Shown here one piece after another: positions 7,109 through 24,051 of a DNA stretch of 32,000 bases. The notes beneath the pieces are model-generated. The model did no database searches and was not told where the DNA came from. It worked only from the letters and a program-made list of their open reading frames with translations. The position numbers and the translations under genes are program-made. Within the stretch, counting starts at the first letter, position 1. Each line of letters starts with the position of its first letter. Source of the stretch: Opitutales bacterium. GTDB lineage: Bacteria > Verrucomicrobiota > Verrucomicrobiia > Opitutales > PNEW01. The stretch is taken from assembly GCA_965219535.1 (NCBI GenBank), contig CBDCNV010000001.1:540001-572000 (forward strand), in the 5' to 3' direction.

Positions 7109-7743
7109 AAAAGGATAAGCCTATAGGGCTCGAACTACTGGTCTTTAAACGGGAGCTATATCGATTACAGTATAATGGTTATCTTGTCGCTCCTTCCGGG
7201 GGTGTGAAGGCTACGATGGTCTTGATTGATAACCTGGAAACTGAAAAAGGAATCTACGGTCGCGTAGGGCAACGATTTGAAGACGATCATTTTTATATTC
7301 GATCATTTGACGTAATGCGATACCTCGTGCAGTCAGATAATTCCAATCAGACTCCTTATTTCGACGAGAACATAAGGCTTGTTGTATTTGATGAACGGCT
7401 CGGTGAGGAAATCACGCTAACGGGTAATAAGAAACGGTATAAACCACAAGTCAAAGCCGTGATAAGAATGATAGAAGACCCGATACAAACTGTCACGGTG
7501 GGCGAAGATGAATCATTTATCATCGCTGAGGCAGAGTATAAATGTGTTGAGATAGATCTTGCCAATAATTCAGTGAGAGTGAGAAGGAACTTATCGGCTC
7601 CAGCTAATGGAGTTATTGAAACCCTGATCGCGAAACCGGGAATCGACGGCACTACGCTGCTGCAAACAATTTCCGATCCAGCTGGAAGATCGCAAAATAA
7701 ATTAAAGTCATACCCGGAAGTTACCACTTTGGGAGAATCTTGA
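7084..7743 (+). CDS. C-terminal fragment of the same split gene
   Basis: This frame is open from 7033 and has only a TTG start at 7084. A -1 shift in the T7 run gives a continuous ~309-codon reading: ...FEVFTPPIIF(L/F)DPRTSAWTLEPPVEE... Confidence 0.55.
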   Translation: MEPPVEEVEKDKPIGLELLVFKRELYRLQYNGYLVAPSGGVKATMVLIDNLETEKGIYGRVGQRFEDDHFYIRSFDVMRYLVQSDNSNQTPYFDENIRLVVFDERLGEEITLTGNKKRYKPQVKAVIRMIEDPIQTVTVGEDESFIIAEAEYKCVEIDLANNSVRVRRNLSAPANGVIETLIAKPGIDGTTLLQTISDPAGRSQNKLKSYPEVTTLGES

Positions 7744-7753
7744 AGCGTAGCTA

Positions 7754-9715
7754 ATGAATGTTCATCGACAAGAATCTATCGGTTTAATAATCCGAAATAT
7801 TATAATCACTGCTATACTCTCGGTGTTCATGTCATCGAAGTTATTGGATGCTCAGGAATCTGGCGGTATTAATTCCGAAACGTATAATGAAAGTGCAGTT
7901 GATGATATTACAAAAAATGAGAAGATTGGAAGTGCTCCTGATTTGCGTACTCGAGATCAGACAAAATACAGAATGATTGATGAAGTTGGCGAAGCCTGGG
8001 AGCGGCCGCAAATATTTGATCGTACCGCAGTTGCTCGCCCTCAAGAGAAGTCAAACCGTATACTGCTTAAAATGGAGTCTATAGTACTTCCCCGTGTAAA
8101 TTTTAACGGTGTTATTTTAAGCCGTGTAATCGACACTCTTTCTGCTCTCTCAGAGGAATATGACCGGGAAAAAGATGGTATAAATATCGTGCTTATCGAT
8201 CCGGCGAATAAAGACCCCACAGTAAATATTGCGTTGCGCAATTTAGCATTAAATAGAGTTCTAGATTTTACCGTTGAATCCATAGGTTATGAATATGATG
8301 TTCAGGATGATGTCGTCGTTGTCCGCCCGAGCACAGGAGTAATCGGCTCTCGTTTAGAGACTGAATTTTTCCCCATCTCCCGTTCTACTATAATCCGCCT
8401 TACCGGCATAGGCTCGAGAACGGGAAGTGGAGATGCCTCTTATGATCCTTTTGCTCCTACTCATGCTCAGAACTCGGGTGACTACGCACTGGGTGGTGAA
8501 GAACAGGTACTCATGAATTTCCTCCAACGGGCAGGTATTCCCTTCGATTCAGTCCCCGGCTCGAATCTCGCTCTTGCTGACGGCCAGCTTATTGTCACAA
8601 GTACCTCGCGGCACATCGACAAGGTTCGCAATTTGCTGCGTCGTTATAGCGAAGTAAAACAAGTCGAGATAGAAACTAAATTTATTGAAGTTCAGCAAAG
8701 CGACCTCGATGAGTTGGGCTTTGACTGGTCAGTGACAGGTAGTGACTTCAGACTTCAATCCTCAATGCGCAGTCTATCCGATGCGTTTTCAATTGGATCG
8801 AATGGAAAAAACATTGTGATCAGTCGTAATGATCCTTTGGGGGATAGTGGGTTATCCACCGCGGATAATTCCCGTTTAATCGTTCCCAATCTACCACCGA
8901 GTCTTCCCAATACTATTGAACTCGGGGAAGGGGCTGATGATTTTGCATCATTTACAGGGATTATTGGTAATGTGGAAGTAAGCGCAATTATCCGGGCGCT
9001 CTCGCTCAAACAAGGTACCGATTTGATGAGTGCTCCGAGAGTCACTGTCTTATCCGGAAAGACCGCGGAAATCGTGGTCGCGCAGGAAATGCGATATCCG
9101 GAGTCCTACGCAGATATTGAATCCGATGTAGGCAGTTCAAGCAGCACGATAAGCGGCGGGAGCGCGGGGATAACGATAACAGCTGGAGCGCCCCAGAATT
9201 TTGTCGTGAGAAACGTGGGGGTAGAAATGGAAGTGACGCCGACAGTAGAAGACGACAACAGCATAAGTCTCCTACTCGAACCGCTGGTCACTGAGTTTGA
9301 AGGTTTTGTCGAGTATGGCGGGCCCAGTATCGGTATTTCCGGAGGGACAACGGTGACCGTTCCATCCGGGTTTTTTCAACCAATATTCTCCGTACGTCGC
9401 ATTCGCACGGAAGTAACCATTTGGGATGGTGCGACGGTCGTGATGGGCGGATTGACGCGCGAAGAGGTAAAAAGCGTCGAAGATAAAGTACCCATTCTTG
9501 GGGATGTGCCTTTACTTGGTCGACTCTTCAGATCGAAAGGGGAGACGACACAAAAGCGAAATCTCCTTATCTTTGTCACCGCCAATTTAATCAGCCCGGG
9601 TGGGTCCCCCGCGCGCCAGCAGTACTCCGAAGTAGAAGCCGGTTCACTCTTCCAAAATCCAACGATGGTAACCCCCGGTGGTGCAATCAATCGTGAATCA
9701 AATGATGATCCTTAA
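7754..9715 (+). CDS. Secretin (GspD/PilQ family outer-membrane channel; Amuc_1098 position)
   Basis: 653 aa with a signal peptide. The C-terminal secretin-domain motif is VPILGDVPLLGRLFRSKGETTQKRNLLIFVTANLI. Confidence 0.9.
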   Translation: MNVHRQESIGLIIRNIIITAILSVFMSSKLLDAQESGGINSETYNESAVDDITKNEKIGSAPDLRTRDQTKYRMIDEVGEAWERPQIFDRTAVARPQEKSNRILLKMESIVLPRVNFNGVILSRVIDTLSALSEEYDREKDGINIVLIDPANKDPTVNIALRNLALNRVLDFTVESIGYEYDVQDDVVVVRPSTGVIGSRLETEFFPISRSTIIRLTGIGSRTGSGDASYDPFAPTHAQNSGDYALGGEEQVLMNFLQRAGIPFDSVPGSNLALADGQLIVTSTSRHIDKVRNLLRRYSEVKQVEIETKFIEVQQSDLDELGFDWSVTGSDFRLQSSMRSLSDAFSIGSNGKNIVISRNDPLGDSGLSTADNSRLIVPNLPPSLPNTIELGEGADDFASFTGIIGNVEVSAIIRALSLKQGTDLMSAPRVTVLSGKTAEIVVAQEMRYPESYADIESDVGSSSSTISGGSAGITITAGAPQNFVVRNVGVEMEVTPTVEDDNSISLLLEPLVTEFEGFVEYGGPSIGISGGTTVTVPSGFFQPIFSVRRIRTEVTIWDGATVVMGGLTREEVKSVEDKVPILGDVPLLGRLFRSKGETTQKRNLLIFVTANLISPGGSPARQQYSEVEAGSLFQNPTMVTPGGAINRESNDDP

Positions 9716-9814
9716 TATTGATAAGTTAAAAAATATACAGCCCATGACACACAATAGATACGTGATTGCAGAATGACGATGACTGACTCATTTATTGAAC
9801 CTTGTAATCTTTAT

Positions 9815-10036
9815 CTTGTCATTGCGAGGGAGGTTAAAACCCGACCGCGGCAATCCAGTGGGATGTCTACTGTGTACTTAAAACCCTGAATGTTAGAGTT
9901 TGTTTCAGCTAGACGAACTCTCATTGGCAAGATCTGAGGAGTGATAGGTGTTTTGTTGATACAATGACTATTCGCCTGGAATGGAAGATGTTGCTACGCT
10001 CGGTAGCCGTGTCGTGTTACTCCTCGCAATGACAAG
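9815..10036. mobile_element. MITE-like element, family 2 (full copy)
   Basis: Perfect 15-bp terminal inverted repeats: CTTGTCATTGCGAGG at 9815-9829 and CCTCGCAATGACAAG at 10022-10036. The right two-thirds recur at 20259-20387. Confidence 0.6.
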
Positions 10037-10037
10037 C

Positions 10038-10302
10038 GGGAAGAAAAAGGGGTCAAACGTAGAATTTAAATGTAATCGTCTGATGAACTAATTACTGACC
10101 CTTTAGGAGTAACAGATATGCAGGCGTTCTGAGATCTCTGGGTAACTATCTATTGTCCTCCCGCGTAATAGTTGACCAATCTCAACCATCGATTCAACAT
10201 TTCACCTTCAATTCTTTGCTTTCATCATAGCTTATTATACGGATTGCTTCAATTGACACTCATTAGATATTTAAATTCTACGTTTGACCCTTCTGGCTTT
10301 TC
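10038..10302. mobile_element. MITE-like element, family 1, copy A
   Basis: 23-bp perfect inverted ends GGGGTCAAACGTAGAATTTAAAT / ATTTAAATTCTACGTTTGACCC(C). Nearly identical to 14863-15129 and 18837-19102. Confidence 0.7.
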
Positions 10303-10333
10303 ACGGCGATTGGTTAGGGTGATTATTGCATCA

Positions 10334-11092
10334 CTAGCCAGGCTGACGAAGCCGAAACACAATGAAATTACACATCCGTAGCTCATCCTTGAAACCGGGA
10401 TATTGATCAAGCATCTCAGAACTTGGCTGTGGCTCTTGCATAGCCTCCAAATGAAAACCTGATTTAATAAAAGTATCAACATACGAACTCAATGTGCGAT
10501 GATACCAAAACAATTTGTCCGATGAATCTAGTGGATATTCCTGTTCATAACGGCCCTCGCAAAAATATCTGTCCACCCGCCAATGCTGTTTCCAACCTTG
10601 TGAATTTCGTTCCCAACCACTCTGAGGTGATATGAAGCAGGGATGCGAAATCGAAACGATATATAGGCCATCAGGTTTGATCAATCGGAAGGCTTCTTCT
10701 ATGGCAGCTTGATAGTTCGGTAGATCCTGAAGAACCATGTTAGATATGATTAGATCGAAGTGGTCTGCTTCTAAAAATGGCAGTGATTCGCAATTGCCAT
10801 GATGATAGGTGATAGCCAAATCCGGCGATGTGCGCTCATGTGCAATACGTAACATGGCCGTGGAAAAATCTACACCTGTTACGACTGCCCCTTGTTTGGC
10901 CAAGAGCCGACTGAGATAGCCATCACCACATCCGGCATCTAATACCGTTCTATCGGCTACATCGCCGATAAGACCAAACAGCGTCGGATTAAGCAACACG
11001 ATACGGTGTTGATCTCCTTCAGCGCCGAAGTCAGCCATGAGATTTTGAGCATGCTTATCCCATTGACCGATGGCTTTTTCAGCTTCAGACAT
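10334..11092 (-). CDS. Class I SAM-dependent methyltransferase
   Basis: Motif I VLDAGCGDGYLSRLLA, followed by VTGVDFS. 252 aa. Confidence 0.85.
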   Translation of the reverse strand: MSEAEKAIGQWDKHAQNLMADFGAEGDQHRIVLLNPTLFGLIGDVADRTVLDAGCGDGYLSRLLAKQGAVVTGVDFSTAMLRIAHERTSPDLAITYHHGNCESLPFLEADHFDLIISNMVLQDLPNYQAAIEEAFRLIKPDGLYIVSISHPCFISPQSGWERNSQGWKQHWRVDRYFCEGRYEQEYPLDSSDKLFWYHRTLSSYVDTFIKSGFHLEAMQEPQPSSEMLDQYPGFKDELRMCNFIVFRLRQPG

Positions 11093-11119
11093 GTCTTATA
11101 TCCTTTGAACGGAGTTTCG

Positions 11120-11206
11120 CCCTAACGTTCAAGTTGACCGGCGGCGCGAAAAGCGTCGCCTTCAGTATCGACGATGATCGCCGTCCGGTCCAACGCTTTG
11201 TTATAC
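11120..11206 (-). other. Integron attC-like recombination site (attC-1)
   Basis: Read on the minus strand: GTATAAC ... GTTAGGG. The arms GTTCAAGTTGACCGGCGGCG and CGCCG[T]CCGGTC[C]AAC pair, leaving two bulged bases on the plus strand. It begins 13 nt after the upstream stop and ends 27 nt before the next start. Confidence 0.7.
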
Positions 11207-11219
11207 CGCGATTCATGCG

Positions 11220-12101
11220 CTACGAGTCTCGGGATTCCAGCTCTTGACGATACCGTTGTGTTGTCCAAATGTCAGTATCCCAAAAGTCTTTGACCACTGG
11301 ATTGTATTCGGCATCACGATCAATTGCCCAGTGATAATGTTTGATTGGGCGCACACTATCGTCATTTCCGATACGAACACAACGGCCGATTATGGTCCAA
11401 ATGTCACAAGCATTCCAAAATTGATTAGCGTTTTCGAGAACGGGTTCCGGGAGCGATTCAATGAAGAGTTCATTGAATGTTGCTATGAATCGCGCGGATC
11501 GCGTTTGGACGACATCGTCGACGGCCCATATATATTCCGGCTCTTCGGGAATCTCCGCACAGCCAAGGTCATCCATTGCGTAAAGCACGACAGATTCACG
11601 CAGCGCAGATAAGACAACCGAATCGCGCGAAAGTGCAGCCAATGCCACCAGAGAAAAATCGTCGGAATCCAGCGCAAATTGACAGGCCGAGTTTGTGAGA
11701 TTCTCGATGTTCCATTCAGGAAATGTCTTCTGCAGGGCAACGGACAATGAATCTTCGCCGACCGTAAGGAGATAATCATCAACAAACGGCGGGCCAAAGA
11801 TAGGTGATTCAGTAACCTGCTTGAGGCGAGTGAAACCATCGACAGAGCTCAATTCGGATTCGCGATGTTTGGGAACTCGTTGAAGCGCGCGAACTAGACG
11901 GAAGTATTCAGTGAGAAGTTCGTCTTCTGCGTAGTACCCTTCAATTGGTACGTCCGCAGGCGCAACCGACAATGCGCTGGCGGTTTCTTTGGCGCAACGC
12001 AAGAGTTCATCGCGCTCGTGGCACTTCATGGCCTCGCGATAGAGGTCATCAAGACCGATCAGAAACACGCGGTTGTCTACGACTCGGCGTTCTGTATTCA
12101 T
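11220..12101 (-). CDS. Hypothetical protein (cassette-encoded)
   Basis: 293-aa ORF bounded by attC-2 (upstream) and attC-1 (downstream). I recognise no motif. Confidence 0.65.
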   Translation of the reverse strand: MNTERRVVDNRVFLIGLDDLYREAMKCHERDELLRCAKETASALSVAPADVPIEGYYAEDELLTEYFRLVRALQRVPKHRESELSSVDGFTRLKQVTESPIFGPPFVDDYLLTVGEDSLSVALQKTFPEWNIENLTNSACQFALDSDDFSLVALAALSRDSVVLSALRESVVLYAMDDLGCAEIPEEPEYIWAVDDVVQTRSARFIATFNELFIESLPEPVLENANQFWNACDIWTIIGRCVRIGNDDSVRPIKHYHWAIDRDAEYNPVVKDFWDTDIWTTQRYRQELESRDS

Positions 12102-12120
12102 GGCGGCAATTGAGTTAGCG

Positions 12121-12177
12121 GTATAACGTTTGAGCTAAGCGGCGCGTTTACGCGTCCGCTTCAGCGACTTGTTAGAA
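12121..12177 (-). other. Integron attC-like recombination site (attC-2)
   Basis: Plus strand: GTATAAC GTTTGAGCTAAGCGGCGCG TTTA CGCG[T]CCGCTT[C]AGCGACTT GTTAGAA. On the minus strand the TAA stop of ORF 12172-12597 lies inside the TTCTAAC box. Confidence 0.75.
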
Positions 12178-12597
12178 AGTTTCCTTTTTTAGTAAGTCTC
12201 TTCCGCCGTGACTGAGTAGCTTCTTCTTATATTCAATCGATTGCATCTGAGGACATTCCAATACTGCCTTGATAAATATCTCTGGTGGTAGGTAATTATG
12301 TACTGCGACATAATGAACGATTAGCTCCGGGGCGGCATAAACATTGCCGTCATAGGGAATGAATAGATTCGCGGTGCCTTTCGCTCCATCGAATTGACAT
12401 AGTTCACATTCATGCGCTCCACCAGACACGAATGTCTGGAATGGTTTTGAAGCAAGGTTCTTCAACTTAGAATAGAATTCTCCAGAAACCTTGCCTTTGG
12501 GAAATTCGAATTCCCAAGATAACCACCCTACTGCAACGAGCTTCTCGCTTCGCACTGGAAAATAGTCACAGATTTCTAAGTCTTTAATTCGTGTCAT
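12172..12597 (-). CDS. Hypothetical protein with HxCxxC ... YAAPxLIxHYxxxHxYxPP motif (conserved family of unknown function)
   Basis: 141 aa. GAHECELCQ ... VYAAPELIVHYVAVHNYLPPEIFIKAV resembles a widespread uncharacterised family that I recall only in outline. Confidence 0.65.
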   Translation of the reverse strand: MTRIKDLEICDYFPVRSEKLVAVGWLSWEFEFPKGKVSGEFYSKLKNLASKPFQTFVSGGAHECELCQFDGAKGTANLFIPYDGNVYAAPELIVHYVAVHNYLPPEIFIKAVLECPQMQSIEYKKKLLSHGGRDLLKKETF

Positions 12598-12606
12598 TAT
12601 ATTTCT

Positions 12607-12748
12607 AACAAGTGATTCTAAAGTTCTGTAATTTCGTGTGTGAGGATAATGCTGTCAAGGTTGGTAACTGATAAATACACAATTTTCTAACTTGTGTTCC
12701 TTACTCCAAACGTGATATAGGTATTTCTGCTTTTGTGATTCCTTATCA
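12607..12748 (-). repeat. 142-bp upstream 'leader' repeat, copy 1
   Basis: Homologous to 28530-28671, with conserved ends and a divergent central ~40 nt. On the minus strand the sequence just downstream of the conserved part reads CACTTGTTAGAAATATA-ATG, a GTTRRRY-like box just before the start codon. Confidence 0.6.
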
Positions 12749-12782
12749 TCACTTGCCGGCAATCGAAACAGTTAATTAAGAT

Positions 12783-12950
12783 CTAACTATATTTCTGAAT
12801 CCAACTGTAAACGGTATTGTAATTTAATTTTAACTTCCTAGCTATTGCCGCAATATTCAATCCCCATTCATACAGATCTAAAACTTTTTGCGAATACTCT
12901 TGTTTAATCCGTTTTTTGTATCCGGGGCAAAGTTTCCTCGGACGACCACC
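12783..12950 (-). pseudogene. Relic of a transposase-type helix-turn-helix N-terminus
   Basis: The minus-strand frame reads PTGGRPRKLCPGYKKRIKQEYSQKVLDLYEWGLNIAAIARKLKLNYNTVYSWIQKYS*. This is typical of IS630/IS3-type HTH regions. It has no start codon and is cut off by element B. Confidence 0.35.
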
Positions 12951-12953
12951 TGT

Positions 12954-13030
12954 GGGAAGAAAAAGGGGTCAAACGTAGAATTTAAATGTAATCGTCTGAT
13001 GAACTAATTACTGACCCCTTCTGGCTTTTC
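12954..13030. mobile_element. Family-1 element, internally deleted copy B (77 bp)
   Basis: The first ~60 nt of the family-1 left end are joined directly to the last ~20 nt of the right end, at the repeated TGACCC motif. Confidence 0.6.
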
Positions 13031-13127
13031 TTATATACCATAAGCGATAAAACGCTGTGGTTACTCGCTGTCGCTGTTCAGTGGTAAAATTGATTCTGTA
13101 TCCATGACTCCTTCCTCTACGATACTC

Positions 13128-13226
13128 CCAGAACATTAGCCGCTTTTACGATAGTTGCTTGTTGCCTTTCACACTGCAAAAACCGAGTATCGCTAATAAA
13201 CCTGATTGGCTAATCTAATGTTGGAT
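13128..13226 (+). other. Long attC-like junction element (S-type, copy S5), plus-strand orientation
   Basis: CCAGAAC-ATTAGCC ... GGCTAATCTAAT-GTTGGAT. The 3' half is homologous to the minus-strand reading of 23968-24010. GTTGGAT lies 19 nt before ATG 13246. Confidence 0.4.
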
Positions 13227-13245
13227 AAGCCGAGAAAGGCAAGGC

Positions 13246-14844
13246 ATGATGGAGCAACCGTTTCGACTTATATGGGAGGCTGAATGGAACGACATCGCGT
13301 GCGTGGATTACCCGCTGACGCCGGAGCAATGGCTGGGCGAGTGCATACGCCCGCTGGAGGGGACGCAGGTGGACTGCCTGCTCTACAACCTGTGCTCGTC
13401 GGACGCATACTGCTGCGACCTGGAAAGCGGCGAGATCCTGGGCGATGCGTTTGATCAATTCGAGGATGCCTGGGTTTGGCGCTATCGAGAGAACACTAAG
13501 AAGCTGATCGAGGCGAACGCGAACCCGCCGGTGCTTGCGTGTGAGTACGGGCACCGCATGGGATTGAAGCTGATTCCGATCGTTCGCATGAATGATGCAC
13601 ACGACCAAGTTTACAAGTACGAGGTCAGCCGGTTCAAGATGGCCAACCTGCATCTGCTTTTGGGTTACACCGGACCGGATTGGCAGCCACCTTGGGGCAC
13701 ATGGTTCCGAGCGCACCCCCATCCCGAGAGCATGGACTCCACTAATTGGGGGATGTTTGATTTTGCGCACAAAGAGGTCCGCGACCACAAAATGGCCATC
13801 ATCAAGGAGTTCATCACCCGATGGGACAACGACGGCGTCGCGCTTGATTTCGACCGTGATCCTCGCTACTTCAAAGAGTTCGGCAAGGCGGAAAACGCTG
13901 CGCTTATCACGGACATGGTACGGCAGACGCGCGAGATTCTGGACCGCGTGAGCAGCGAACGTGGTCGGCCCATGTACCTGCATGTGCGTGTCGTGGCAGA
14001 TATCGACACGTGCTGGCAACGAGGAATGGACGTGCGAACGTGGGTAACTGAGGGGTTGGTCGACGCCGTTGCGCCTGGCGCCGGATACATGTTATTCGAT
14101 TTGGACCTCGGTCCGTGGTTGGAACTGGTCGAAGGGCATGACTGCTGGATTTTCCCCTGCGCGAACCACTGGAGAAGGACGGAAGTGACCCGCGCCTGGG
14201 CCAAGTTAATGTATCATCGGGGAGCGCATGGTCTGCAACTGTTCAACTACGGGCACTTGCTCTACGGACACGGAAAAGATACGCCACCGCAATCCGAGCG
14301 AACAGGGACGGTCTGGTACGACGATCTGCACCCGGATTATTATCGTGTGCTGCGCGAGATCCACGATCCGGGCGCAATTGCCTTTCTCAACTGCGATTAC
14401 GATCTCGATTCACATCCGCGCGCGCCAAACCAGGGCGCTGAATCGGGACAGAACCACAGGATCTACCGGGGTATCGACGCGATCGTGCTCCCTGTGGAGC
14501 TGTCGGTTGGGTCACACGTCATCCCATTCGGGATTGCCGATGATCTGGAAGCGGCACGGCAACGGGTGCTGTCGCCGAGAGTCACCTTGCGATTACAGGT
14601 ACACAACTTCACGCAGCCGGATGAGTATAAGGTCTCAGTTAATGGAAGGTTATTGCCGGTAGATACGCGGAGCACCCGGGCGCAGTTTATCATGGACAAT
14701 TTTACTCGCATAACTTATCCCATACCGCCCGATGTCTTGAGGTTCGGCCAGAATGAATTGAAGATCGACATAGAACGCCTCAATCCGGTGATTTGCGTGA
14801 CTCCGCGACTGGATCATGTCGAGATTCTCGTGCAATATGCCTGA
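13246..14844 (+). CDS. Putative TIM-barrel glycoside-hydrolase-like protein
   Basis: 532 aa, GC-rich. FDFAHKEVRDHKMAIIKEFITRWDNDGVALDFDRDPRYF resembles the EVR...YD.DG..LD..R.P segment of GH-like (GHL10-type) families. The functional call is tentative. Confidence 0.55.
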   Translation: MMEQPFRLIWEAEWNDIACVDYPLTPEQWLGECIRPLEGTQVDCLLYNLCSSDAYCCDLESGEILGDAFDQFEDAWVWRYRENTKKLIEANANPPVLACEYGHRMGLKLIPIVRMNDAHDQVYKYEVSRFKMANLHLLLGYTGPDWQPPWGTWFRAHPHPESMDSTNWGMFDFAHKEVRDHKMAIIKEFITRWDNDGVALDFDRDPRYFKEFGKAENAALITDMVRQTREILDRVSSERGRPMYLHVRVVADIDTCWQRGMDVRTWVTEGLVDAVAPGAGYMLFDLDLGPWLELVEGHDCWIFPCANHWRRTEVTRAWAKLMYHRGAHGLQLFNYGHLLYGHGKDTPPQSERTGTVWYDDLHPDYYRVLREIHDPGAIAFLNCDYDLDSHPRAPNQGAESGQNHRIYRGIDAIVLPVELSVGSHVIPFGIADDLEAARQRVLSPRVTLRLQVHNFTQPDEYKVSVNGRLLPVDTRSTRAQFIMDNFTRITYPIPPDVLRFGQNELKIDIERLNPVICVTPRLDHVEILVQYA

Positions 14845-14862
14845 GCGCTTAGCATTTGGGAA

Positions 14863-15129
14863 GGGAAGAAAAAGGGGTCAAACGTAGAATTTAAAATGTA
14901 ATCGTCTGATGAACTAATTACTGACCCTTTAGGAGTAACAGATAGGCAGGCGTTCTGAGATCTCTGGTTAACTTTCTATTGTCCTTCCGCGTAATAGTTG
15001 ACCAATCTCAACCATCGATTCAACATTTCACCTTCAATTCTTTGCTTTCATCATAGCTTATTATACGGATTGCTTCAATTGACACTCATTAGATATTTAA
15101 ATTCTACGTTTGACCCCTTCTGGCTTTTC
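14863..15129. mobile_element. MITE-like element, family 1, copy C
   Basis: Same ends and interior as copies A and D, with a few substitutions and a 1-nt indel. It starts 18 nt after the stop of the upstream gene. Confidence 0.7.
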
Positions 15130-15217
15130 AGCGACCTCTGCGTCTCCGCGGTTAAATTTTCTTTTTTAAATACATTATTTTTTTGTGTTTATTCGTGTCT
15201 ATTGGTGATTAAATTCA

Positions 15218-16267
15218 ATGCTGAAGATTAGTGATGTTATGAAAGGAAATTGGCCGGTCGGGAAATCACCTGTGGAGGTGGGGCGTAGGATAGCGAGTTA
15301 CATTGTCAGTCGGGAGTTGAGGTATGTGTATGCGGCGACTTGTGCCTACTATGGAGCGCTTATATTTTCCGATGCCACCCATGACACGGATCTGCGCAAT
15401 CGTGTCATCGCTAATTATGAACCTTTCCTCATGGGTGACAAGAGCCCGCGCACGGGGCACGTGGACAACAACCTGTTTGGCATTGTGCCTTTTGAGATCT
15501 ATCGCCAGACGAAGGAAAAAAAATACCTGGCGATTGCGAAGTTGCTGGCCAACGACGAATGGGAGAACCCGCGACCCGACGGTTTAACCAAGTATACGCG
15601 TTTTACCGCGGATGATCCCTACATGGTCGGTTCATTGCAGGCCCAGGCTTACAAGGCTACGGGTGACATCGATTATGCAGACCGTGGCGCGAAGTTTATA
15701 CTGGCTTATGCGGAGAAGCTTCAGCGACCGGATGGTCTTTTTATCTATGACGAGAACAGACCGATTGCCTGGGGTAGAGGTAACGGCTGGTGCATTGGCG
15801 GCATGACGGAAATGCTGCTCGCTTTTCCCGAGGACCATGCCCAGCGAGAAGCGCTCATGGAAGTCTATCGAAAACAGATTGACGGTCTGATAAAACACCA
15901 GGACGAAACGGGAATGTGGCACCAGGTGATCGACAACCCCCATCTATTTCTCGAGTCATCGGGCACCGGAATAATTACCTATGCCATAGCAACTGGTGTT
16001 GAGCAAGGATGGCTGCCCGAAAAGACTTACCGGGATGTAGCCGAGCGTGCCTGGCTGGCGCTCACCGACTATGTTGACGAACAAGGCCAGGTGCGGAATA
16101 TCAGTTCAGGACATGTAGCCCTGATAAGAGAGTCTATGGAATTTTATGCCGAGCATGGCGAATTCCCGAAAGATGATTATCCCTCTATGAATGAAGTCGG
16201 TGATTTTCATGGTCAGGCAGTCGTGCTCTGGGCCGCAGCGGGGATGGAGAGAATCAGTAAACAGTGA
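15218..16267 (+). CDS. GH105/GH88-family unsaturated glycuronyl (rhamnogalacturonyl/glucuronyl) hydrolase
   Basis: Motifs WGRGNGW, GMWHQVID and ESSGTGIITYA, as in YteR/UGL-type enzymes. 349 aa. Confidence 0.8.
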   Translation: MLKISDVMKGNWPVGKSPVEVGRRIASYIVSRELRYVYAATCAYYGALIFSDATHDTDLRNRVIANYEPFLMGDKSPRTGHVDNNLFGIVPFEIYRQTKEKKYLAIAKLLANDEWENPRPDGLTKYTRFTADDPYMVGSLQAQAYKATGDIDYADRGAKFILAYAEKLQRPDGLFIYDENRPIAWGRGNGWCIGGMTEMLLAFPEDHAQREALMEVYRKQIDGLIKHQDETGMWHQVIDNPHLFLESSGTGIITYAIATGVEQGWLPEKTYRDVAERAWLALTDYVDEQGQVRNISSGHVALIRESMEFYAEHGEFPKDDYPSMNEVGDFHGQAVVLWAAAGMERISKQ

Positions 16268-16294
16268 ACAGTAAGTGGGCACTTGAGCGGGTGG

Positions 16295-16498
16295 AGTCGA
16301 AGGTCGAAGGTCTAAGGTCAAAAGGGGGGAGAAGAAAAGGGTTCAGGTTTCGGGTGTCGGATTTCGGAAAAAAATACTTATTATCGTTAGGAACAATCGT
16401 ACCCAGGGCAATACCCGACATTCTCCAAATCGGAAATCAGCAATTATTCTAACCCTGAACCTTCATAACCTAAAACCTAACACTTAACATCTAAAACT
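16295..16498. repeat. Palindromic element J (GGGTTCAGG variant) flanked by 7-bp tandem arrays
   Basis: 4 x RGTCKAA at 16295-16322. Inverted arms AAAAGGGTTCAGGTTTCGGGTGTCGGATTTCGG / CCGACATTCTCCAAATCGGAAATC...CCCTGAACCTT. About 5 x TAA(A/C)A(C/T)(C/T) heptamers at 16464-16498. Confidence 0.55.
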
Positions 16499-16508
16499 GA
16501 TCGATAGA

Positions 16509-18725
16509 TCACTCTATCGTTATCTCGTCTACTTCGACCGTGATGACATCGCCGTCTTCGTTAGCGAAGGTGGCATTAATACTCTGCGTAGGCTGAGGGG
16601 TGTTGTCAGACTTGAAGTTGTTCTGGGTGATCAAGGTCTCAAACCCCGTTGCGGGCGACCCGCTCTCCGCCACTACGATGGATGCTCCGTTCGTCTGCGC
16701 GAGGTCACCTCCGGTGATGCGCAACCCGGGGTTGCCGGCGGGCACGGAGAAGGACCCTTCACCAAAGAGGAGGTGGGGCACTGCATCGCCGTCGGCATCG
16801 ATATCACCTACGGTTAAGCGCACGGCAATCGGGACCCCGCGCGCATCGACGCCAACCTTGCCGGTGTTGCCACTGAAGACGGTGTTCGATAGTTGCATTC
16901 CTCCCATTCCCGTGGAGTTGATCACTTCCACCAAGGTCACGTCGGCCTGTGCGTCATAGACCTGTCCCTCGGGGAACAACGCCTGGTTCACCGCATTGAT
17001 TGATCCTACCGTAAAGATACTGAAGAAAGTACTGGAGTCGGCTCCATCAATGACCACGCTCGGTTTGCCCGTCACGTACTCGACTGACTGGTTGTAGCGT
17101 GGGGGGACGGCCGGAGGCAGGAAGGTGGCCGGGTCGAGGGTTACGGTAAAGGTGCCCGTGCCGGAGAATTCCACCTGCACGATGTCCTCGGTTTCATCCA
17201 TAAAGGAGACGCGTGTGATCTGATTCGGTCTGGCCTGTAGTTGGATGGACTCTCCGGTTAGGAGTATTTGATCAAAGACGTTACCGTTGGGATGCTGAAT
17301 GTTTTCACCGGCAATATCGCCTGAGCCGTCGAGGACCAAGGGCACGGAGGGGGCTGCGACGGTGATAACCGCAGTATCACTGTTAGTACTACCACCAGCG
17401 TTTGTTATCTGTACCCAGAAGTTGCTACTTGCGGTGAGGGCACTGGTTGTGAAGCTACTGCCAGTGGCCCCGGCGATGGGACTCGCGGTGTCACCGCTAT
17501 TGCCGGTAAACCATTGGAATGTAAGATCGTCACCACTGGCTTCAACGGACAAGCTGGTCGATGCACTGGACTGCACCTCCTGGCTCGCTGGTTGGGTGGT
17601 GATAGAGGGAGCATCCGCGGGTGGGGGACCCTCGGAGCCCGTTCCCGGGGCGCCGATGGGAGTAAAACCGAAATCATCGAAGACGGTTCTGCTTCTCGCA
17701 GTATTTACATTGGGGTTGTCCGAAACAATAATTCTGTCAATGCCGCCTGGAGCTCCCAACTCCACCGCATTGATCGTAGTTTGACGGGGTTTAAGTAAAG
17801 CACCAAGACCCCCAGCACTTTCCAAGTCCGAAAAGGTAGCAAGAAGGTTATCATTAGTATCGTAAACTTCGATTGATCCGTCGGGATCAGTATCGCCAGA
17901 CAAAATAATGGCTGCAGCAAAAACATCGATCTCGAATGCCGGGGTTTCAAAAGTGACCGTGAAGCTTTCTCCGTTAAAAATCCCATAGGATACTTGTCCC
18001 GAACGCGTTGGATTTTCTGAAGCACCAGCTAGTATCGAGCCCCCATCAAAAGTAGCACTATTGGGTGATGCCCCAACAATAAGGGGTTCAATTATTCCTG
18101 CACCCACACTGAATTCCTCAAATGTAGTGAATACGGTGTTATTGGACGGTCTTCTCGTTATCGTGAATCCCAGATCGTCAAGGGAGAATTTTCCTGAAAC
18201 ATTTTTTATTTTTAATTCTTTAATGCCGTCGAGAAAGTCAAAATCGGACGAGTCGAGGAACATATCACTGTCTGAAACGAAGATTTGAAGTGGTGGATTG
18301 GCACCGGGACTGATATTGGTAGGGAGACCATCGACAATACCATTATCCGCTAGAGTTGATGGAAATATTTGGCCTTCAAAAGGGAAATTTCCTCTGGGCT
18401 CGATCCTGCCGGCTCCCGTATTTTCGGCCGCATAAAATTGGATTTCATCAATACCTCTTTCCGATACAATTACCCCCTCCTGACCAGGCCCGAGGGTTAT
18501 CGCTTTTGTTCCGGAGTGTAAAAGTGCTGGATCTTCCAGGGTTTCCACCGTGAATCCGACTATCTTTACCCTGTTGGGTTCTTCCCCAATGAAAAATTCA
18601 CCTTCCCCGCTGATGTCCTCGAAATCGGTGAACACCTCGAGGTCTTGAGGAAGGGCCGACAGATGCACCGGTAAATAGAGTAAAAGAATCAGAAGCGGAA
18701 TTATTTTTATAGGTTTTCTTTTCAT
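16509..18725 (-). CDS. Large secreted surface protein with Ig-like domain (adhesin-like, function unknown)
   Basis: 738 aa with a signal peptide (KIIPLLILLLYLPVHLSA). It has an Ig-like module (ITTQPASQEV...LTFQWFTGNSG...AVITV) and repeated FxDFE-type N-terminal modules. Confidence 0.7.
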   Translation of the reverse strand: MKRKPIKIIPLLILLLYLPVHLSALPQDLEVFTDFEDISGEGEFFIGEEPNRVKIVGFTVETLEDPALLHSGTKAITLGPGQEGVIVSERGIDEIQFYAAENTGAGRIEPRGNFPFEGQIFPSTLADNGIVDGLPTNISPGANPPLQIFVSDSDMFLDSSDFDFLDGIKELKIKNVSGKFSLDDLGFTITRRPSNNTVFTTFEEFSVGAGIIEPLIVGASPNSATFDGGSILAGASENPTRSGQVSYGIFNGESFTVTFETPAFEIDVFAAAIILSGDTDPDGSIEVYDTNDNLLATFSDLESAGGLGALLKPRQTTINAVELGAPGGIDRIIVSDNPNVNTARSRTVFDDFGFTPIGAPGTGSEGPPPADAPSITTQPASQEVQSSASTSLSVEASGDDLTFQWFTGNSGDTASPIAGATGSSFTTSALTASSNFWVQITNAGGSTNSDTAVITVAAPSVPLVLDGSGDIAGENIQHPNGNVFDQILLTGESIQLQARPNQITRVSFMDETEDIVQVEFSGTGTFTVTLDPATFLPPAVPPRYNQSVEYVTGKPSVVIDGADSSTFFSIFTVGSINAVNQALFPEGQVYDAQADVTLVEVINSTGMGGMQLSNTVFSGNTGKVGVDARGVPIAVRLTVGDIDADGDAVPHLLFGEGSFSVPAGNPGLRITGGDLAQTNGASIVVAESGSPATGFETLITQNNFKSDNTPQPTQSINATFANEDGDVITVEVDEITIE

Positions 18726-18836
18726 GCTGTTATAACGATTGTAGCGATGCCAAAGATCGGCGCAAGGACTATACGCTTATTGGGTATTTTTTTACTGGTT
18801 GGTTAGTCATTTAAACTAACCGTATTTAATATAAAG

Positions 18837-19102
18837 GGGAAGAAAAAGGGGTCAAACGTAGAATTTAAATGTAATCGTCTGATGAACTAATTACTGACCC
18901 TTTAGGAGTAACAGATATGCAGGCGTTCTGAGATCTCTGGTTAACTTTCTATTGTCCTCCCGCGTAATAGTTGACCAATCTCAACCATCGATTCAACATT
19001 TCACCTTCAATTCTTTGCTTTCATCATAGCTTATTATACGGATTGCTTCAATTGACACTCATTAGATATTTAAATTCTACGTTTGACCCCTTCTGGCTTT
19101 TC
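18837..19102. mobile_element. MITE-like element, family 1, copy D
   Basis: Nearly identical to copies A and C. Its right end lies 4 nt from the stop codon of ORF 19107-20063. Confidence 0.7.
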
Positions 19103-19106
19103 TCCC

Positions 19107-20063
19107 TTACCAGGCGTGGGCCCACTCCATTTCGATCCATTTAAGCGGTTTCTCCCCCAGCACCTTACAGCCGTGGTCCACATGCTTGGGCGCGAAAATC
19201 AGGTCTCCGGCCTTCACTTCAGTCGTCGTATAACCGATCTCTAAGAGGCCTCGGCCCGAAAGTATATAAAAAGCCTGTTCCCGATCATGGTGGGCATGTG
19301 TGGGCGTCCCGCCATCTGGCCCGTATTGAGACAGGGCAGACCGTACCATCAGACTGTTCGCTTTGAAATTATTCCACCTTTCCAAGTCTTTCGGGTTATA
19401 CAAGAGGGAAGCCGAAAGCCGGGTATGGCCGCCCGCGCCAACAATCGTTAACCCGTTGTCTTTTTGGCGAGGCGCAGGCGCCACGGTAATGTACCCGCCC
19501 TCTCTGAAATAGTCGAACGGACTGCTGGATTCAGAACGGATGACCGGTTTTACATTCGCGTGCGGCACGGCACCCTCCTCCTTCCAGACAGCCTTCACGA
19601 GCCTTAACGGTTCCGCTCCCGTCACCTTCGCCGCAAAAGACAATCCGGATGGAACGAAAATCACGTCCTCTTTCACCACATCGGATATGAAGGATCCGAT
19701 TTTAATATCGGCTGTTCCTCCCGCAACGATGAGCAAAGTTTCTACCTTTCCCTCTCCAGCCCCGAGAAGCGCCTCGCCGTCGGAGGAATATTCCAGGATA
19801 GAAACATGAGCCAGGTTTGAATTTCCCCGATGATTCCAATCCCGATTATCTTTCGGGGATACGAGCACCGCCATCGACTTGCCCCGCTCACCTTCCGAAT
19901 CGGGGACCGCCTTCAACGGGTTCGTCTCCTCATTAAAGATCAAATGCCCCCACCCGGGGCCGTCGTCAGATTGAAGGGCCGCGGTGAAGAAGATTAGCGC
20001 CAGGACTAACGATGCGGTGACCCTGCGCGCGACCGATTTTTCAACAGCTTTCAAGAAAAGCAT
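19107..20063 (-). CDS. Secreted bicupin protein
   Basis: 318 aa with a signal-like N-terminus (LVLALIFFTAALQS). Two cupin-like halves; the C-terminal one carries THAHHDREQAFYILSG...HVDHG. Confidence 0.7.
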   Translation of the reverse strand: MLFLKAVEKSVARRVTASLVLALIFFTAALQSDDGPGWGHLIFNEETNPLKAVPDSEGERGKSMAVLVSPKDNRDWNHRGNSNLAHVSILEYSSDGEALLGAGEGKVETLLIVAGGTADIKIGSFISDVVKEDVIFVPSGLSFAAKVTGAEPLRLVKAVWKEEGAVPHANVKPVIRSESSSPFDYFREGGYITVAPAPRQKDNGLTIVGAGGHTRLSASLLYNPKDLERWNNFKANSLMVRSALSQYGPDGGTPTHAHHDREQAFYILSGRGLLEIGYTTTEVKAGDLIFAPKHVDHGCKVLGEKPLKWIEMEWAHAW

Positions 20064-20097
20064 GATATTATGTCTCAGAAGGAAAGTAAAAAAGAAT

Positions 20098-20252
20098 AAA
20101 AAAGGGGTCAGGCTGTGTATCTATAGATTTCAACTTAGTAAATTATATCACACCGTAGTTGGATACGATTAAAAAAATAAGATTTGTTCATTCAACTGTT
20201 CTCTTTATTTTCGAATCCATATAAACTATATATACACAACCTGACCCCTTTT
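20098..20252. mobile_element. MITE-like element, family 3 (copy F)
   Basis: Inverted ends AAAAGGGGTCAGGCTGTGTAT / ATACACAACCTGACCCCTTTT (1 mismatch) enclose an AT-rich ~110-nt core. Confidence 0.6.
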
Positions 20253-20258
20253 GTTCAT

Positions 20259-20387
20259 CCTGAATGTTAGAGTTTGTTTCAGCTAGACGAACTCTCATTG
20301 GCAAGATCTGAGGAGTGATAGTTGTTTTGTTGACACAATGACTATTCGCCTGGATTGCCGTGTCGTGTTACTCCTCACAATGACAAG
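20259..20387. mobile_element. Family-2 element, truncated copy
   Basis: Matches 9886-10036. It lacks the left ~70 nt and an internal 26-nt segment. It abuts element F. Confidence 0.55.
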
Positions 20388-20455
20388 AAAGGTAGCAAAT
20401 GCTGTCAGCGGTAAAATCTCCGCTTCAAAAATAGAGCGAAATTCAAAAGAAATTC

Positions 20456-20525
20456 AAAAGGGGTCAGGCCTTGCATTCCGGCAAAAAAATAAAAAAAATG
20501 CTAGGATGCAATGCCTGACCCTTTT
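20456..20525. repeat. Family-3 hairpin (copy G), terminator-like, directly downstream of the BNR gene
   Basis: AAAAGGGGTCAGGCCTTGCAT ... ATGCAATGCCTGACCCTTTT: an A-tract, a ~17-bp stem and a T-tract, ending 2 nt from the stop at 20528. Confidence 0.55.
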
Positions 20526-20527
20526 CG

Positions 20528-21619
20528 CTAATCAGCCGCGACCATCAGGCTGTTTCCCCTGGCCTTGTTCACGAGCAGACCCAGCGCGGCAGCGTCTGAG
20601 ATGCACGTGCCCTGAGCCACATCGTCCTGGGTGAACGTTGCCATAAGAATTTCCTTTGCGCCCCTACGGGAGCGGTCGTAAATCACGTAGATGATCCCGT
20701 CCGGCGCCTGCACCCCATCCGGATAGGAGACCTCGTCGCGTTCATCGAGCAGCAATCCACCGATCCAGGAGTTCCCGTCATTCTTCGAGAGGAACGCTGT
20801 GAGATGCGATCGGCCGATTCGCTTGTTGATTGGGCCGTGTTTCACCAGCAGTAAGTTTCCCGATCGAAGTCGTCGCACAAAGAAGCGAGACATCGTGTGC
20901 TGGATTTGTAATGGCCGCACCAGGCTCCATGTTCGGCCACGGTCAGTAGAGATACTCTCGCCAATGCCGTATTGTGTGCGAACAAGCATCCATAATGCCC
21001 CGTTGCCTCGCTCAACAATCATGTGCTCTTCGGCATTGCGATCTTGCGCCGGCACCGTGCTCTGACCAAGAAAGTGCCATGTAGAGCCCTGGTCGGAAGA
21101 GGAATAGACCTGGGCACTCCCCTCGCGATGCCAGCAGGCGACGGGAAAGAGCCACTCCCCCGAGGATAACACCGTGGGCTTGTTCAGCATGACGCCATCG
21201 CACAACCGCACGGGCTCCGACCACTCTGGCTTGGTTGCGTCGGATTGCCGTGTCGTGATTGCCCAGACGCCTGTTCGCTCATCCGTGTGCCGCTCGTATC
21301 CCTGAGCCCAGAACAGCCACAGCCGTCCGTCCGGATCGTGCCACAGGCAGGGATCGAACGCCCTCACCGGCCCATCGCCGTCAGGGTCGATGACAAGCCC
21401 CACGTCGGACCATTTACTCCCGCCGTCTTCGCTGGTGGCAAGCAAGATGTGGTTATATCGATCTTCACGGATGCCGCCACCATACCACGTTGCCCACAAC
21501 CTGCCTGACCGAGCACGCTCAACGCTCGGGATTCCCTGGAACTTGCGCGAGCCATCGGCATACTTCGGCCCGGGCGGAATCACCACTTCAGGTGCGCACA
21601 TATAAGCTTCTTCACTCAT
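20528..21619 (-). CDS. BNR-repeat (sialidase-like, GH33-type fold) glycosidase family protein
   Basis: Four Asp-box motifs: SEDGGSKW, SSDQGSTW, STDRGRTW, SKNDGNSW. ATG 21619 has an AAAGGAA RBS. The ORF-track TTG start at 21643 would run into attC-6. Confidence 0.8.
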   Translation of the reverse strand: MSEEAYMCAPEVVIPPGPKYADGSRKFQGIPSVERARSGRLWATWYGGGIREDRYNHILLATSEDGGSKWSDVGLVIDPDGDGPVRAFDPCLWHDPDGRLWLFWAQGYERHTDERTGVWAITTRQSDATKPEWSEPVRLCDGVMLNKPTVLSSGEWLFPVACWHREGSAQVYSSSDQGSTWHFLGQSTVPAQDRNAEEHMIVERGNGALWMLVRTQYGIGESISTDRGRTWSLVRPLQIQHTMSRFFVRRLRSGNLLLVKHGPINKRIGRSHLTAFLSKNDGNSWIGGLLLDERDEVSYPDGVQAPDGIIYVIYDRSRRGAKEILMATFTQDDVAQGTCISDAAALGLLVNKARGNSLMVAAD

Positions 21620-21634
21620 CTGAACATTCCTTTC

Positions 21635-21691
21635 GTCTAACAACCAAGGACAGGTGCGGCTTCAGCCGTTACCTGCTCCGCCTTGTTCTAA
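21635..21691 (-). other. Integron attC-like recombination site (attC-6)
   Basis: Plus strand: GTCTAAC AACCAAGGACAGGTGCGGC TTCA GCCG[T]TACCTG[C]TCCGCCTT GTTCTAA. It abuts the VOC stop codon and ends 15 nt before the BNR ATG. Confidence 0.7.
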
Positions 21692-22081
21692 TTAGCTTCG
21701 TATACCAGCCTCGATGTTGTTTCCGTCGGGATCTAAAAGATATGCGCCGAAATAGCCGCGGCCACAGTCTTCTGGTTTCCCATTGTCACGACCACCGTGC
21801 TCAAGCCCCAATCTATGAAATTCTCTTACCGCCTGTTTAGATGGCGCCTTAAAGCCGATGTGAATTGGTCGATGTACATTCACGCTCAGCTTCGTTCCGT
21901 AATACTCACCCTGAGCTTGCCCTACCCATAGAAAAGGGAATTTTGTTTCGTCCGCGAAAATTACTGCGTTCCATTCCGGTTGACTCTCCCAGATTTTGAT
22001 CCCCAAGGGAGCAAGACATGCCTCAAGAAACGGTATACTCTTATCGAAATCAGAAACATAGAATCCAAAATGATCAATCAT
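21692..22081 (-). CDS. VOC family (glyoxalase/bleomycin-resistance/dioxygenase fold) protein
   Basis: 129 aa. N-terminus IDHFGFYVSDFDKSIPFLEACLAPLG and C-terminus GAYLLDPDGNNIE are typical of VOC domains. Confidence 0.8.
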   Translation of the reverse strand: MIDHFGFYVSDFDKSIPFLEACLAPLGIKIWESQPEWNAVIFADETKFPFLWVGQAQGEYYGTKLSVNVHRPIHIGFKAPSKQAVREFHRLGLEHGGRDNGKPEDCGRGYFGAYLLDPDGNNIEAGIRS

Positions 22082-22233
22082 CGTTAACCTTTCTATGTAG
22101 CCATGAATCCGTCTACAATATCCTCGATGTCAGTTGTGTATGATATTCCTTCAGCTCTGTGCGAAGTGTCTCTCGATATTGCAGGTATCTTATTTTGTCG
22201 GTCTCCAGCACATTGTTAGATTCCGACCCCTCT

Positions 22234-22653
22234 TCACTCACCAATGGGATACCCCATGATCCAAACAATGAAAATAACAAGAATTTGAACAAAGAGTAGG
22301 GGAATATACCAAGCGAAAACAGAAATTAAATTGACCCACCATTTTTGCTTTGAAGATATTTGAATGAATTTTTCTAAATAAGTTCCAATCCCCAAAACCA
22401 AAAATAGGCCAACCAGAAAAACAATTGCAAATAAAAAAATCCCAGGTTTAGGAAACCAATTTTGTAAGGCTAGGATCAGTGGATATGGCCATAAATAAGC
22501 TGTCATCATCAAAAGATCGGCTGGTTCACCTAAAATGAGCTTGGTCGCTCGACCAATGAAAAAAAGAGAAGAGAAAACCAAATACAGAGCGGCTATTTTC
22601 GTGGCGAGTATATGCCGTTTGTAATAAGAGCGTGTGAAGAATGATATTTTCAT
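22234..22653 (-). CDS. Small integral membrane protein, unknown function
   Basis: About 4 hydrophobic segments. ATG 22653 lies 11 nt after the attC-3 GTTAGAT box. The ORF-track start at 22701 would translate through the attC hairpin. Confidence 0.6.
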   Translation of the reverse strand: MKISFFTRSYYKRHILATKIAALYLVFSSLFFIGRATKLILGEPADLLMMTAYLWPYPLILALQNWFPKPGIFLFAIVFLVGLFLVLGIGTYLEKFIQISSKQKWWVNLISVFAWYIPLLFVQILVIFIVWIMGYPIGE

Positions 22654-22664
22654 ATTGCTAAGGA

Positions 22665-22719
22665 ATCTAACGATTGAAATCAGTGGTGCTTTAGCGTTCA
22701 CTGGATTGATCTGTTAGAA
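22665..22719 (-). other. Integron attC-like recombination site (attC-3)
   Basis: Plus strand: ATCTAAC GATTGAAATCAGTGGTGC TTTA GCG[T]TCACTG[G]ATTGATCT GTTAGAA. Identical over ~55 nt to 23905-23959. Confidence 0.7.
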
Positions 22720-24050: not shown

Positions 24051-24051
24051 C

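Follow-up and report, generated by a model that had tools for sequence, protein, structure and literature searches.

Background

RAYT-like tyrosine transposases are very common, and their activity is poorly understood. In the IS200/IS605 elements, such as IS608 and ISDra2, Y1 HUH chemistry is applied to hairpins of single-stranded DNA, cleavage occurs at a distance from the hairpin foot, the target is not duplicated, and the orientation is strand-specific. This report concerns a dispersed repeat, here called family 1, in a stretch of 32,000 nt from the genome of an Opitutales bacterium (contig CBDCNV010000001.1, positions 540,001 to 572,000; the whole stretch is referred to as the window), together with a RAYT-like gene that is bracketed in related genomes by the same terminal inverted repeats (TIRs).

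The closest described systems are units in which RAYT-like genes are flanked by long inverted repeats sharing the motif GGGGWSAS. Di Nocera, De Gregorio and Rocco (2013, BMC Genomics 14:522; PMC3733652) named these units TIRtrons and their enzymes TIRYTs, and also reported families of TIR repeats of moderate abundance. Quentin et al. (2018; PMC6006769) identified the TIRYTs with subclass 2.1 of the TnpA_REP proteins, which corresponds to RAYT group 1 of Bertels and comprises long proteins with a C-terminal domain resembling a helix-turn-helix (HTH; Bac_DnaA_C, HTH_23 or HTH_28), and described the mobility of this TIR-associated group as being without formal evidence. According to Bertels et al. 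(2017), RAYT group 1 is among the most IS-like groups, its flanking 16-mers being moderately repeated.

[quoted passage not shown] An initial annotation of the window, made from its letters alone, had left room for an unusual element; what we find is a fresh example in marine Opitutales of a type of mobile element described in 2013 and no novel kind, that is, a clean and well-resolved addition to the TIRtron/TIRYT class in Verrucomicrobiota.

Family 1 in the window and in related genomes

Three complete copies of family 1 lie in the window, all in direct orientation on the plus strand. Copy 1 has 263 nt (10040–10302, TIRs at 10049–10071 and 10269–10290), copy 2 has 265 nt (14865–15129, TIRs at 14874–14895 and 15096–15117) and copy 3 has 264 nt (18839–19102, TIRs at 18848–18870 and 19068–19090). 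Their pairwise identities are 97.8%, 98.5% and 98.9%, the differences including indels of 1 nt. When these copies are aligned with five from the related chromosome OY829953.1, which is ~95–97% identical to the window where alignable and carries at least six family-1 copies, an invariant unit of 263–265 nt emerges that runs from GAAGAAAAA to TTCTGGCTTTTC; these two sequences form the left and right outer flanks of every copy. The inverted ends, (AA)GGGGTCAAACGTAGAATTTAAAT, measure 23–25 nt. In copy 3 they are perfect over 23 nt, or 25 nt counting the preceding AA, whereas copy 2 has a TIR of 22 nt with an extra A and the right TIR of copy 1 is short by one terminal C.

The unit is short, AT-rich and intergenic, and each copy stands close to a stop codon. 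Copy 1 lies 31 nt past the stop of a minus-strand methyltransferase gene (10334–11092), copy 2 lies 18–20 nt from the nearest stop codon, its start being 20 nt 3' of the stop of the gene at 13246–14844, and copy 3 lies 4 nt from the stop of a minus-strand cupin gene (19107–20063). A fourth unit (12956–13030, plus strand) is an internal-deletion derivative in which the left 65 nt are joined to the right end, so that the left outer flank, the left TIR and 42 nt of interior run up to an internal TGACCC and from there directly into the right outer flank CCCCTTCTGGCTTTTC. With three mismatches or fewer, the TIR 20-mer occurs at nine sites in the window where 0.00 are expected, which makes it a dispersed repeat family.

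The flanks are unrelated in all eight aligned copies and diverge from the identical nucleotide on each side, so that the copies are not segmental duplications and this explanation could be ruled out. No direct repeat of at least 4 nt flanks any of the eight, even when boundary shifts of 3 nt are allowed. The base preceding the unit is G in seven of the eight, and all four family-1 units of the window are oriented alike; shared orientation and preceding G are compatible with strand- and site-specific insertion, for which they are weak evidence.

Much of the initial annotation was thus borne out, namely the three near-identical direct copies, their conserved asymmetric outer flanks, the lack of flanking direct repeats, the position within 4–31 nt of a stop codon and the presence of derivatives, to which an element at 28699–28845 with the same TIR and another interior also belongs. 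The sharp ends, unrelated flanks and missing target duplication likewise fit its description of the element as MITE-like and non-autonomous. Its boundaries needed a small correction: the unit itself was drawn properly, but the two G's with which it began each copy (10038, 14863 and 18837) are frequent and not invariant. Similarly, the perfect inverted ends of 23 bp that it had reported for all copies are found in copy 3 only.

The TIR sequence GGGGTCAAACGTAGAATTTAAA is found across many Opitutales and Puniceicoccaceae genomes. Counted in one-genome-per-species representatives, the exact 20-mer occurs at 40 loci, nearly all of them in Opitutales, Puniceicoccaceae or Verrucomicrobia metagenome-assembled genomes (MAGs), and 13 of these loci belong to OY829953.1; in the viral contigs searched it is absent. 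Our assignment of the element to its hosts rests on this distribution and not on the kinds of genes in the window (sulfatase, GH88, BNR, FG-GAP and pilus genes), which are common in Verrucomicrobiota. The TIR pair encloses anything from a loop of 8–11 nt to an interior of ~200 nt, giving units of 55–244 nt, or ~1 kb when a gene is carried. The shortest forms (MAG QNAI01) are perfect palindromes of 55–61 nt, and an A-run precedes and a T-run follows all of them. In four families, family-specific outer flanks of 9–12 nt are kept on both sides.

A Y1 transposase gene between the repeats

In two of the retrieved loci (L014 and L022) a solo end has within ~40 nt an open reading frame (ORF) that starts MPRKQR...YH...SRGNYR...SNHYHL, and further solo ends adjoin the 3' end of the same Y1_Tnp gene. 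The TIRs flank this gene directly in L014, L022, L028 and L032; overall, such direct flanking was found in seven genomes, all of them relatives of the window's genome. A TIR pair encloses the gene as a unit of ~1002 bp in Puniceicoccus vermicola, Coraliomargarita parva and MAG CBDBFA01, with ~42 nt between the end of the left TIR and the ATG and 5–15 nt between the stop and the start of the right TIR. The initial annotation had recommended a search for a longer, autonomous element sharing these ends; in relatives such an element is present as a ~1-kb unit enclosing a Y1 HUH (RAYT-like) gene.

The association extends beyond these genomes. In a metagenome scan, for which those loci were counted that had both flanks available (n=65), inverted repeats of 14 nt or more (median 27) bracketed the gene at 60 of 65 loci, as opposed to 4 of 325 shuffled controls, and reached 20 nt or more at 57 loci. 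The TIR class tracks the transposase clade across the 65 loci: identity to the L032 protein is 51–72% for the class AAACG, 50–53% for AGTCC and 44–47% for AGGCT. Because TIR class follows protein clade in this way, the window, in which two TIR classes occur (see below), holds miniatures of two clades.

An intact transposase of 312 amino acids (aa; L032 2043–2981) sits between two complete elements of 126 nt, whose interiors are remnants of the 3' end of the transposase gene itself. Such 3'-end remnants occur inside short elements (L016 and the 126-nt family of L032) as well as beside solo TIRs (L033 and L038), and short families that contain them arose by internal deletion. That miniatures arise through internal deletion of the transposase unit is thereby shown.

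The end of the gene overlaps the repeat in L032, where the TIR of the adjacent 126-nt element encodes the final seven codons and the stop of the intact ORF (KGVKRRK*, 2043–2063). Just outside several solo TIRs there are two to three short direct repeats resembling the TIR tip (e.g. GGGACCAAAA ... GGGACCAAAA GGGGTCAAAC), as seen at L015 ~3527–3556, L007 ~84–113, L029 ~4421–4450 and L038 ~2458–2487; they could serve as additional binding sites or have arisen by slippage.

The bracketing of a Y1 gene also bears on the GGGG tip of the repeats. Tn3-family ends begin with GGGGTC, as do the inverted repeats of family 1, and the element is short, AT-rich and intergenic, so that it could be taken for a MITE of the Tn3 family or of another DDE system, comparable to the Tn3-derived inverted-repeat miniature elements (TIMEs), with GGGG-tipped repeats bound by a DDE transposase encoded elsewhere. 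Like family 1, TIMEs are small non-coding elements whose inverted repeat has a GGGG tip. However, the TIR of family 1 has 23–25 nt and not the ~38 nt of Tn3, the conserved inner TAAG is absent, none of the eight copies shows a 5-bp or other target duplication, and at 60 of 65 loci the TIRs bracket a Y1 HUH gene while no DDE gene was found there. As its defining features are absent this reading fails, and we regard its probability as next to negligible. The loose likeness to Tn3 ends pointed out in the initial annotation is thus coincidental: the repeat measures 24 nt and not 38 nt, a 5-bp duplication is missing, and the associated enzyme is a tyrosine and not a DDE transposase.

The encoded protein

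About 3,000 homologues of ~304 aa were found, some of which carry in their source the name 'REP element-mobilizing transposase RayT' or 'transposase'. The transposase matches the Pfam model Y1_Tnp (PF01797) with 40–51 bits (cut-off 23). The motifs N59-H60-x-H62 (HUH) and Y119-x-H-L-N-P124 are invariant across 50 sequences, and the class-2 motif Y---NP is present. The NCBIfam model REP_Tyr_transpos scores 64.4 bits, which is under its cut-off of 80, and the NCBIfam IS200 model scores 18 bits, far under its cut-off of 55.

An AlphaFold model of the transposase (mean pLDDT 79) has its best PDB fold match in E. coli TnpA_REP (4ER8, E 1e-6, TMt 0.70), followed by the structures of ISDra2 and IS608 TnpA; a profile search against PDB sequences was less clear and gave only a weak match to TnpA_REP (E 0.037). 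The C-terminal half of the protein is conserved and helical (pLDDT 84–93 over residues 240–300), and Pfam HTH models found no match in it at E values up to 10.

Comparison with described systems

The units described here have several points in common with the TIRtrons: long TIRs of the GGGGWSAS type stand on either side of a RAYT-like Y1 gene, a short and fixed distance away from it, and the TIRs also form dispersed, moderately abundant repeat families that are often paired. A second TIR class in the window, GGGGTCAG, fits GGGGWSAS at 8 of 8 positions (20104, 20460 and 25710). Several features set the present material apart. The Opitutales and Puniceicoccaceae hosts are not listed in the text of Di Nocera et al. 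(2013). The interiors are family-specific, up to 200 nt long and MITE-like, with copies 97–99% identical, each family has asymmetric outer flanks of 9–12 nt, and TIR class and transposase clade co-vary over the 65 loci.

Systems of repetitive extragenic palindromes (REPs) and their RAYTs, such as E. coli TnpA_REP and the REPINs of Pseudomonas, likewise consist of non-autonomous hairpin repeats linked to a Y1 HUH enzyme; there too the repeats are intergenic, 3' of genes and without target duplication, and the fold of the protein described here is nearest to TnpA_REP. The arm of a REP element is, however, an imperfect palindrome of 20–40 nt with a 5' GTAG, whereas the single arm here has no self-complementarity evident by eye, and the GTAG within this TIR is swapped for GCAA or GTTT in sister variants. 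The protein also differs, having ~304 aa with a helical C-terminal half as against the 165 aa of TnpA_REP, and remaining under the REP_Tyr_transpos equivalog cut-off. With IS200/IS605 it has in common the Y1 HUH chemistry, a fold matching ISDra2 and IS608 TnpA, and insertion without target duplication; those elements, by contrast, have no TIRs and a separate subterminal hairpin at each end, while the ends here are mutually complementary over 23–34 nt, and the protein stays far under the cut-off of the NCBIfam IS200 model. TIMEs finally differ in that family 1 has neither a 38-bp inverted repeat nor a 5-bp duplication nor any association with a DDE transposase.

Probable mobilisation of family 1

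Family 1 is probably mobilised in trans by such a transposase through a hairpin of single-stranded DNA, by analogy with the chemistry established for IS608 and TnpA_REP. The autonomous form would be the ~1-kb unit with a TIRYT gene (~304 aa) within TIRs of 24–30 nt that start with an A-run and GGGGTCA. Where the DNA is single-stranded, as for instance in the lagging-strand template, pairing of the two TIRs would give a single long stem, and a transposase encoded elsewhere in the genome would recognise this stem of paired ends in trans. It would then cut ~9–12 nt outside the stem on each side via a phosphotyrosine link, as do IS608 TnpA and E. coli TnpA_REP, and the excised piece would be rejoined elsewhere without target duplication. 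In the predicted single-strand fold of family 1 the paired TIRs indeed dominate (z = −4.2; −8 to −11 in the shorter relatives). Hairpin-dependent mobilisation, one of the options left open by the initial annotation, would fit both this enzyme family, which acts on hairpins of single-stranded DNA without producing duplications, and the lack of a target duplication at the copies.

Several observations weigh against membership of family 1 in this class, or against its movement. Its TIR start GGGGTCAA fits GGGGWSAS at only 7 of 8 positions. No transposase gene was found in the window or in the examined region of the 60-kb contig, and the retrieved loci of OY829953.1 contain C-terminal transposase remnants only (L033, L016). 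No similarity to the transposase unit could be detected in the interior of family 1. Flank-joining BLAST over 127 sequences (710 kb) gave no empty site and no presence/absence polymorphism. For family 1 itself we infer both the cleavage offset of 9–12 nt and the use of a single stem as substrate. Finally, transposition of a TIRYT or RAYT in vivo is not shown in the literature on the class (PMC6006769).

The lack of a transposase from the window had been noticed in the initial annotation, and tblastn with the associated transposase agrees, giving no match in the window, family-1 interior included; the interior thus holds no recognisable transposase remnant. Since empty sites and polymorphism are missing, movement is inferred from the number of copies, their near-identity and the lack of relation between their flanks. 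The label 'recently active' given by the initial annotation is accordingly plausible in view of paralogues that are 98–99% identical, but no empty site or polymorphic insertion was found to confirm it. For comparison, copy 3 and its ortholog in OY829953.1 (L040 5244–5507, the copy labelled L040b) are 97.3% identical, and the whole orthologous segment including the adjacent gene is ~95% identical.

The same observations can be read differently, in that the TIR hairpins could be structural or regulatory sites maintained by the host (for instance terminators acting in both directions, stabilisers of 3' ends or sites bound by a domesticated TIRYT) that were spread by recombination, gene conversion or segmental shuffling. 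Each copy lies 4–31 nt 3' of a stop codon, the short forms consist of an A-run, a perfect stem and a T-run and so resemble bidirectional intrinsic terminators, the region is a mosaic whose synteny breakpoints relative to OY829953.1 coincide with element boundaries, empty sites were lacking in the 127 sequences, and RAYTs have been argued to be domesticated and mostly single-copy genes (Bertels et al. 2017). On the other hand, recombination alone does not readily produce eight copies with unrelated flanks and the same edge nucleotide, and the internal-deletion derivatives of the transposase unit resemble the classic genesis of MITEs. Family 1 ends in CCCCTTCTGGCTTTTC without a T-run, and interiors of up to 200 nt without conserved structure would be superfluous in a terminator. 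A terminator and promoter scan of the region 9.5–29.4 kb gave no site at any element, with totals not above those of shuffled sequences, and scans of the window for Rfam families and tRNAs gave nothing. We consider maintenance as host sites unlikely. On the TIRtron reading, the position just 3' of genes would be where such hairpins are tolerated, and a role as terminator or at 3' ends is possible.

Other TIR elements in the window

Besides family 1 the window contains an element at 28699–28845 that has the family-1 TIR class, perfect arms of 26 nt (AAAAGGGGTCAAACGTAGAATTTAAA) and an unrelated interior of 94 nt, and is 84% identical to L034 5929–6082 in OY829953.1. The remaining elements belong to the second TIR class, which has only AAAAGGGGTCAGGC in common with the first. 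The element at 20100–20253 (AAAAGGGGTCAGGCTGTG...CCTGACCCCTTTT) has arms of 30 nt that are 90% complementary; its TIR class flanks a more distant transposase clade in the metagenome loci. A short hairpin element at 20455–20526 (GGGGTCAGGCC...GCCTGACCC) is preceded by an A-run and followed by a T-run. On the plus strand there are in addition a solo left TIR at 25706–25736 (AAAAGGGGTCAGGCCGTGTATTTATAGATTT), the right partner of which was not found, a truncated TIR tip at 28680–28692 (AAAAGGGGTCAGG) that immediately precedes the element at 28699–28845, and a degenerate TIR at 30690–30720 (AAAAGAGGTCAGGCTGCTG...). Altogether AAAGGGGTCA occurs at 11 sites in the window, where 0.09 are expected, and all of them lie within 9.7–32 kb.

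The combination of pilus genes and hairpin pairs also raised the idea of a DNA uptake sequence, which was dropped as the sequence is tied to a transposase gene.

A mosaic accessory region

The genes of the region 9.7–32 kb have GC contents of 36–59%. Alignments between the window and OY829953.1 all end within a few nt of TIR-element boundaries (window 18837, 20262, 24050 and 28852; L010 6063; L040 6702), and on the basis of these alignments the TIR elements appear to mark the joints of a shuffled accessory region.

Such an arrangement recalls a gene-cassette array, in which the copies would be attC-like or dif-like cassette-boundary sites used by a site-specific recombinase. The copies are direct, there is one per gene or gene pair just past the stop codons, the GC content of the genes ranges from 36 to 59%, the gene order differs from that of the related genome at element boundaries, and in a variant contig (L045) a large serine recombinase lies beside the array. 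Pfam scans of 36 window ORFs, however, revealed no integron integrase; the arms (GTCAAAC / GTTTGAC) are, on direct reading and not by a formal attC scan, without the RYYYAAC/GTTRRRY cores of the attC R''/R' sites; relative to the elements, genes are found on either strand; and no extrahelical bases occur in the short forms, which are perfect palindromes. The link of the sequence is with a Y1 transposase and not with a recombinase, and the junction of the serine recombinase (window 9242) falls inside a secretin gene and not at a TIR. Like the Tn3 reading, the attC-like one thus fails for want of its defining features, and we rate it as highly improbable.

A further proposal goes beyond membership in the TIRtron class. 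TIRYT elements could be active single-strand transposons that are not domesticated, with ends forming one stem that carries arbitrary cargo, from 8 nt to whole genes, and arrays of same-orientation miniatures in Opitutales could move or shuffle the genes between them. We regard this as a tentative and rather doubtful extension; if true, it would explain the exact coincidence of synteny breakpoints relative to OY829953.1 with element boundaries in a region whose GC content is mixed. The lineage in any case offers unusually clean natural material, with several young miniature families whose copies are 97–99% identical, sharp ends 9–12 nt off a conserved stem, obvious internal-deletion derivatives of the autonomous unit and TIR classes that track transposase clades. 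It provides concrete substrates for the biochemistry of a Y1 HUH enzyme on paired ends as compared with the two separate hairpins of IS200/IS605, and marks out the repeats as places where accessory regions of Opitutales are likely to be rearranged.

Contig L045 represents the window's own genome from 9242 on, matching window 9242–24844 with one mismatch in 15.6 kb (99.994%). To the left of the junction (1–5997) it contains a large serine recombinase of 554 aa, HTH genes and an inverted copy, 95% identical, of window 24848–25650; the window has in this place the body of the secretin gene (7754–9715), the junction at 9242 lying inside it. It has the look of an integrated element or a polymorphic rearrangement, or of a difference between assemblies, by which the pilus secretin is disrupted.

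Other repeats adjoin the TIR elements. 'Module X', a repeat of ~150–180 nt with 97% identity, occurs at window 9885–10036 and 20259–20436 and at L010 2177–2364 and 6339–6516. It always abuts the end of a TIR element, and the copy at 9885 stops exactly where family-1 copy 1 begins, while in L010 module X continues uninterrupted. As an empty site of copy 1 it had to be rejected, because the sequence past copy 1 does not resume module X and no clean empty site results. The closest homologue found (L046, 86% identity) of the neighbour gene at 13246–14844, which encodes 532 aa, was likewise rejected as an empty site, having a different context and no GGGGTCA elements. Directly after the stop of this homologue, in a genome of 7 Mb, there is an unrelated long hairpin element (L046 ~7640–7900) with GC-rich arms of 32 nt and an interior of ~190 nt, i.e. 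a different repeat type in the same 3' position.

A repeat of ~140 nt with 82% identity (window 12607–12748 and 28530–28671; L013 2188–2326 and 3223–3353) stands beside TIR elements and directly upstream of a DUF7919 gene and a sulfatase gene, both on the minus strand and unrelated to each other. It could be a promoter or leader module that the two have in common, or could belong to a composite repeat. A repeat of 100 nt with 86% identity occurs at window 2687–2786 and 25741–25840, the second copy directly following the solo TIR at 25706–25736. Finally, three related repeats of 60–100 nt (22669–22771, 23909–24010 and 24581–24643) are located at the 5' ends of consecutive minus-strand genes, one of unknown function, one GNAT and one cupin gene.

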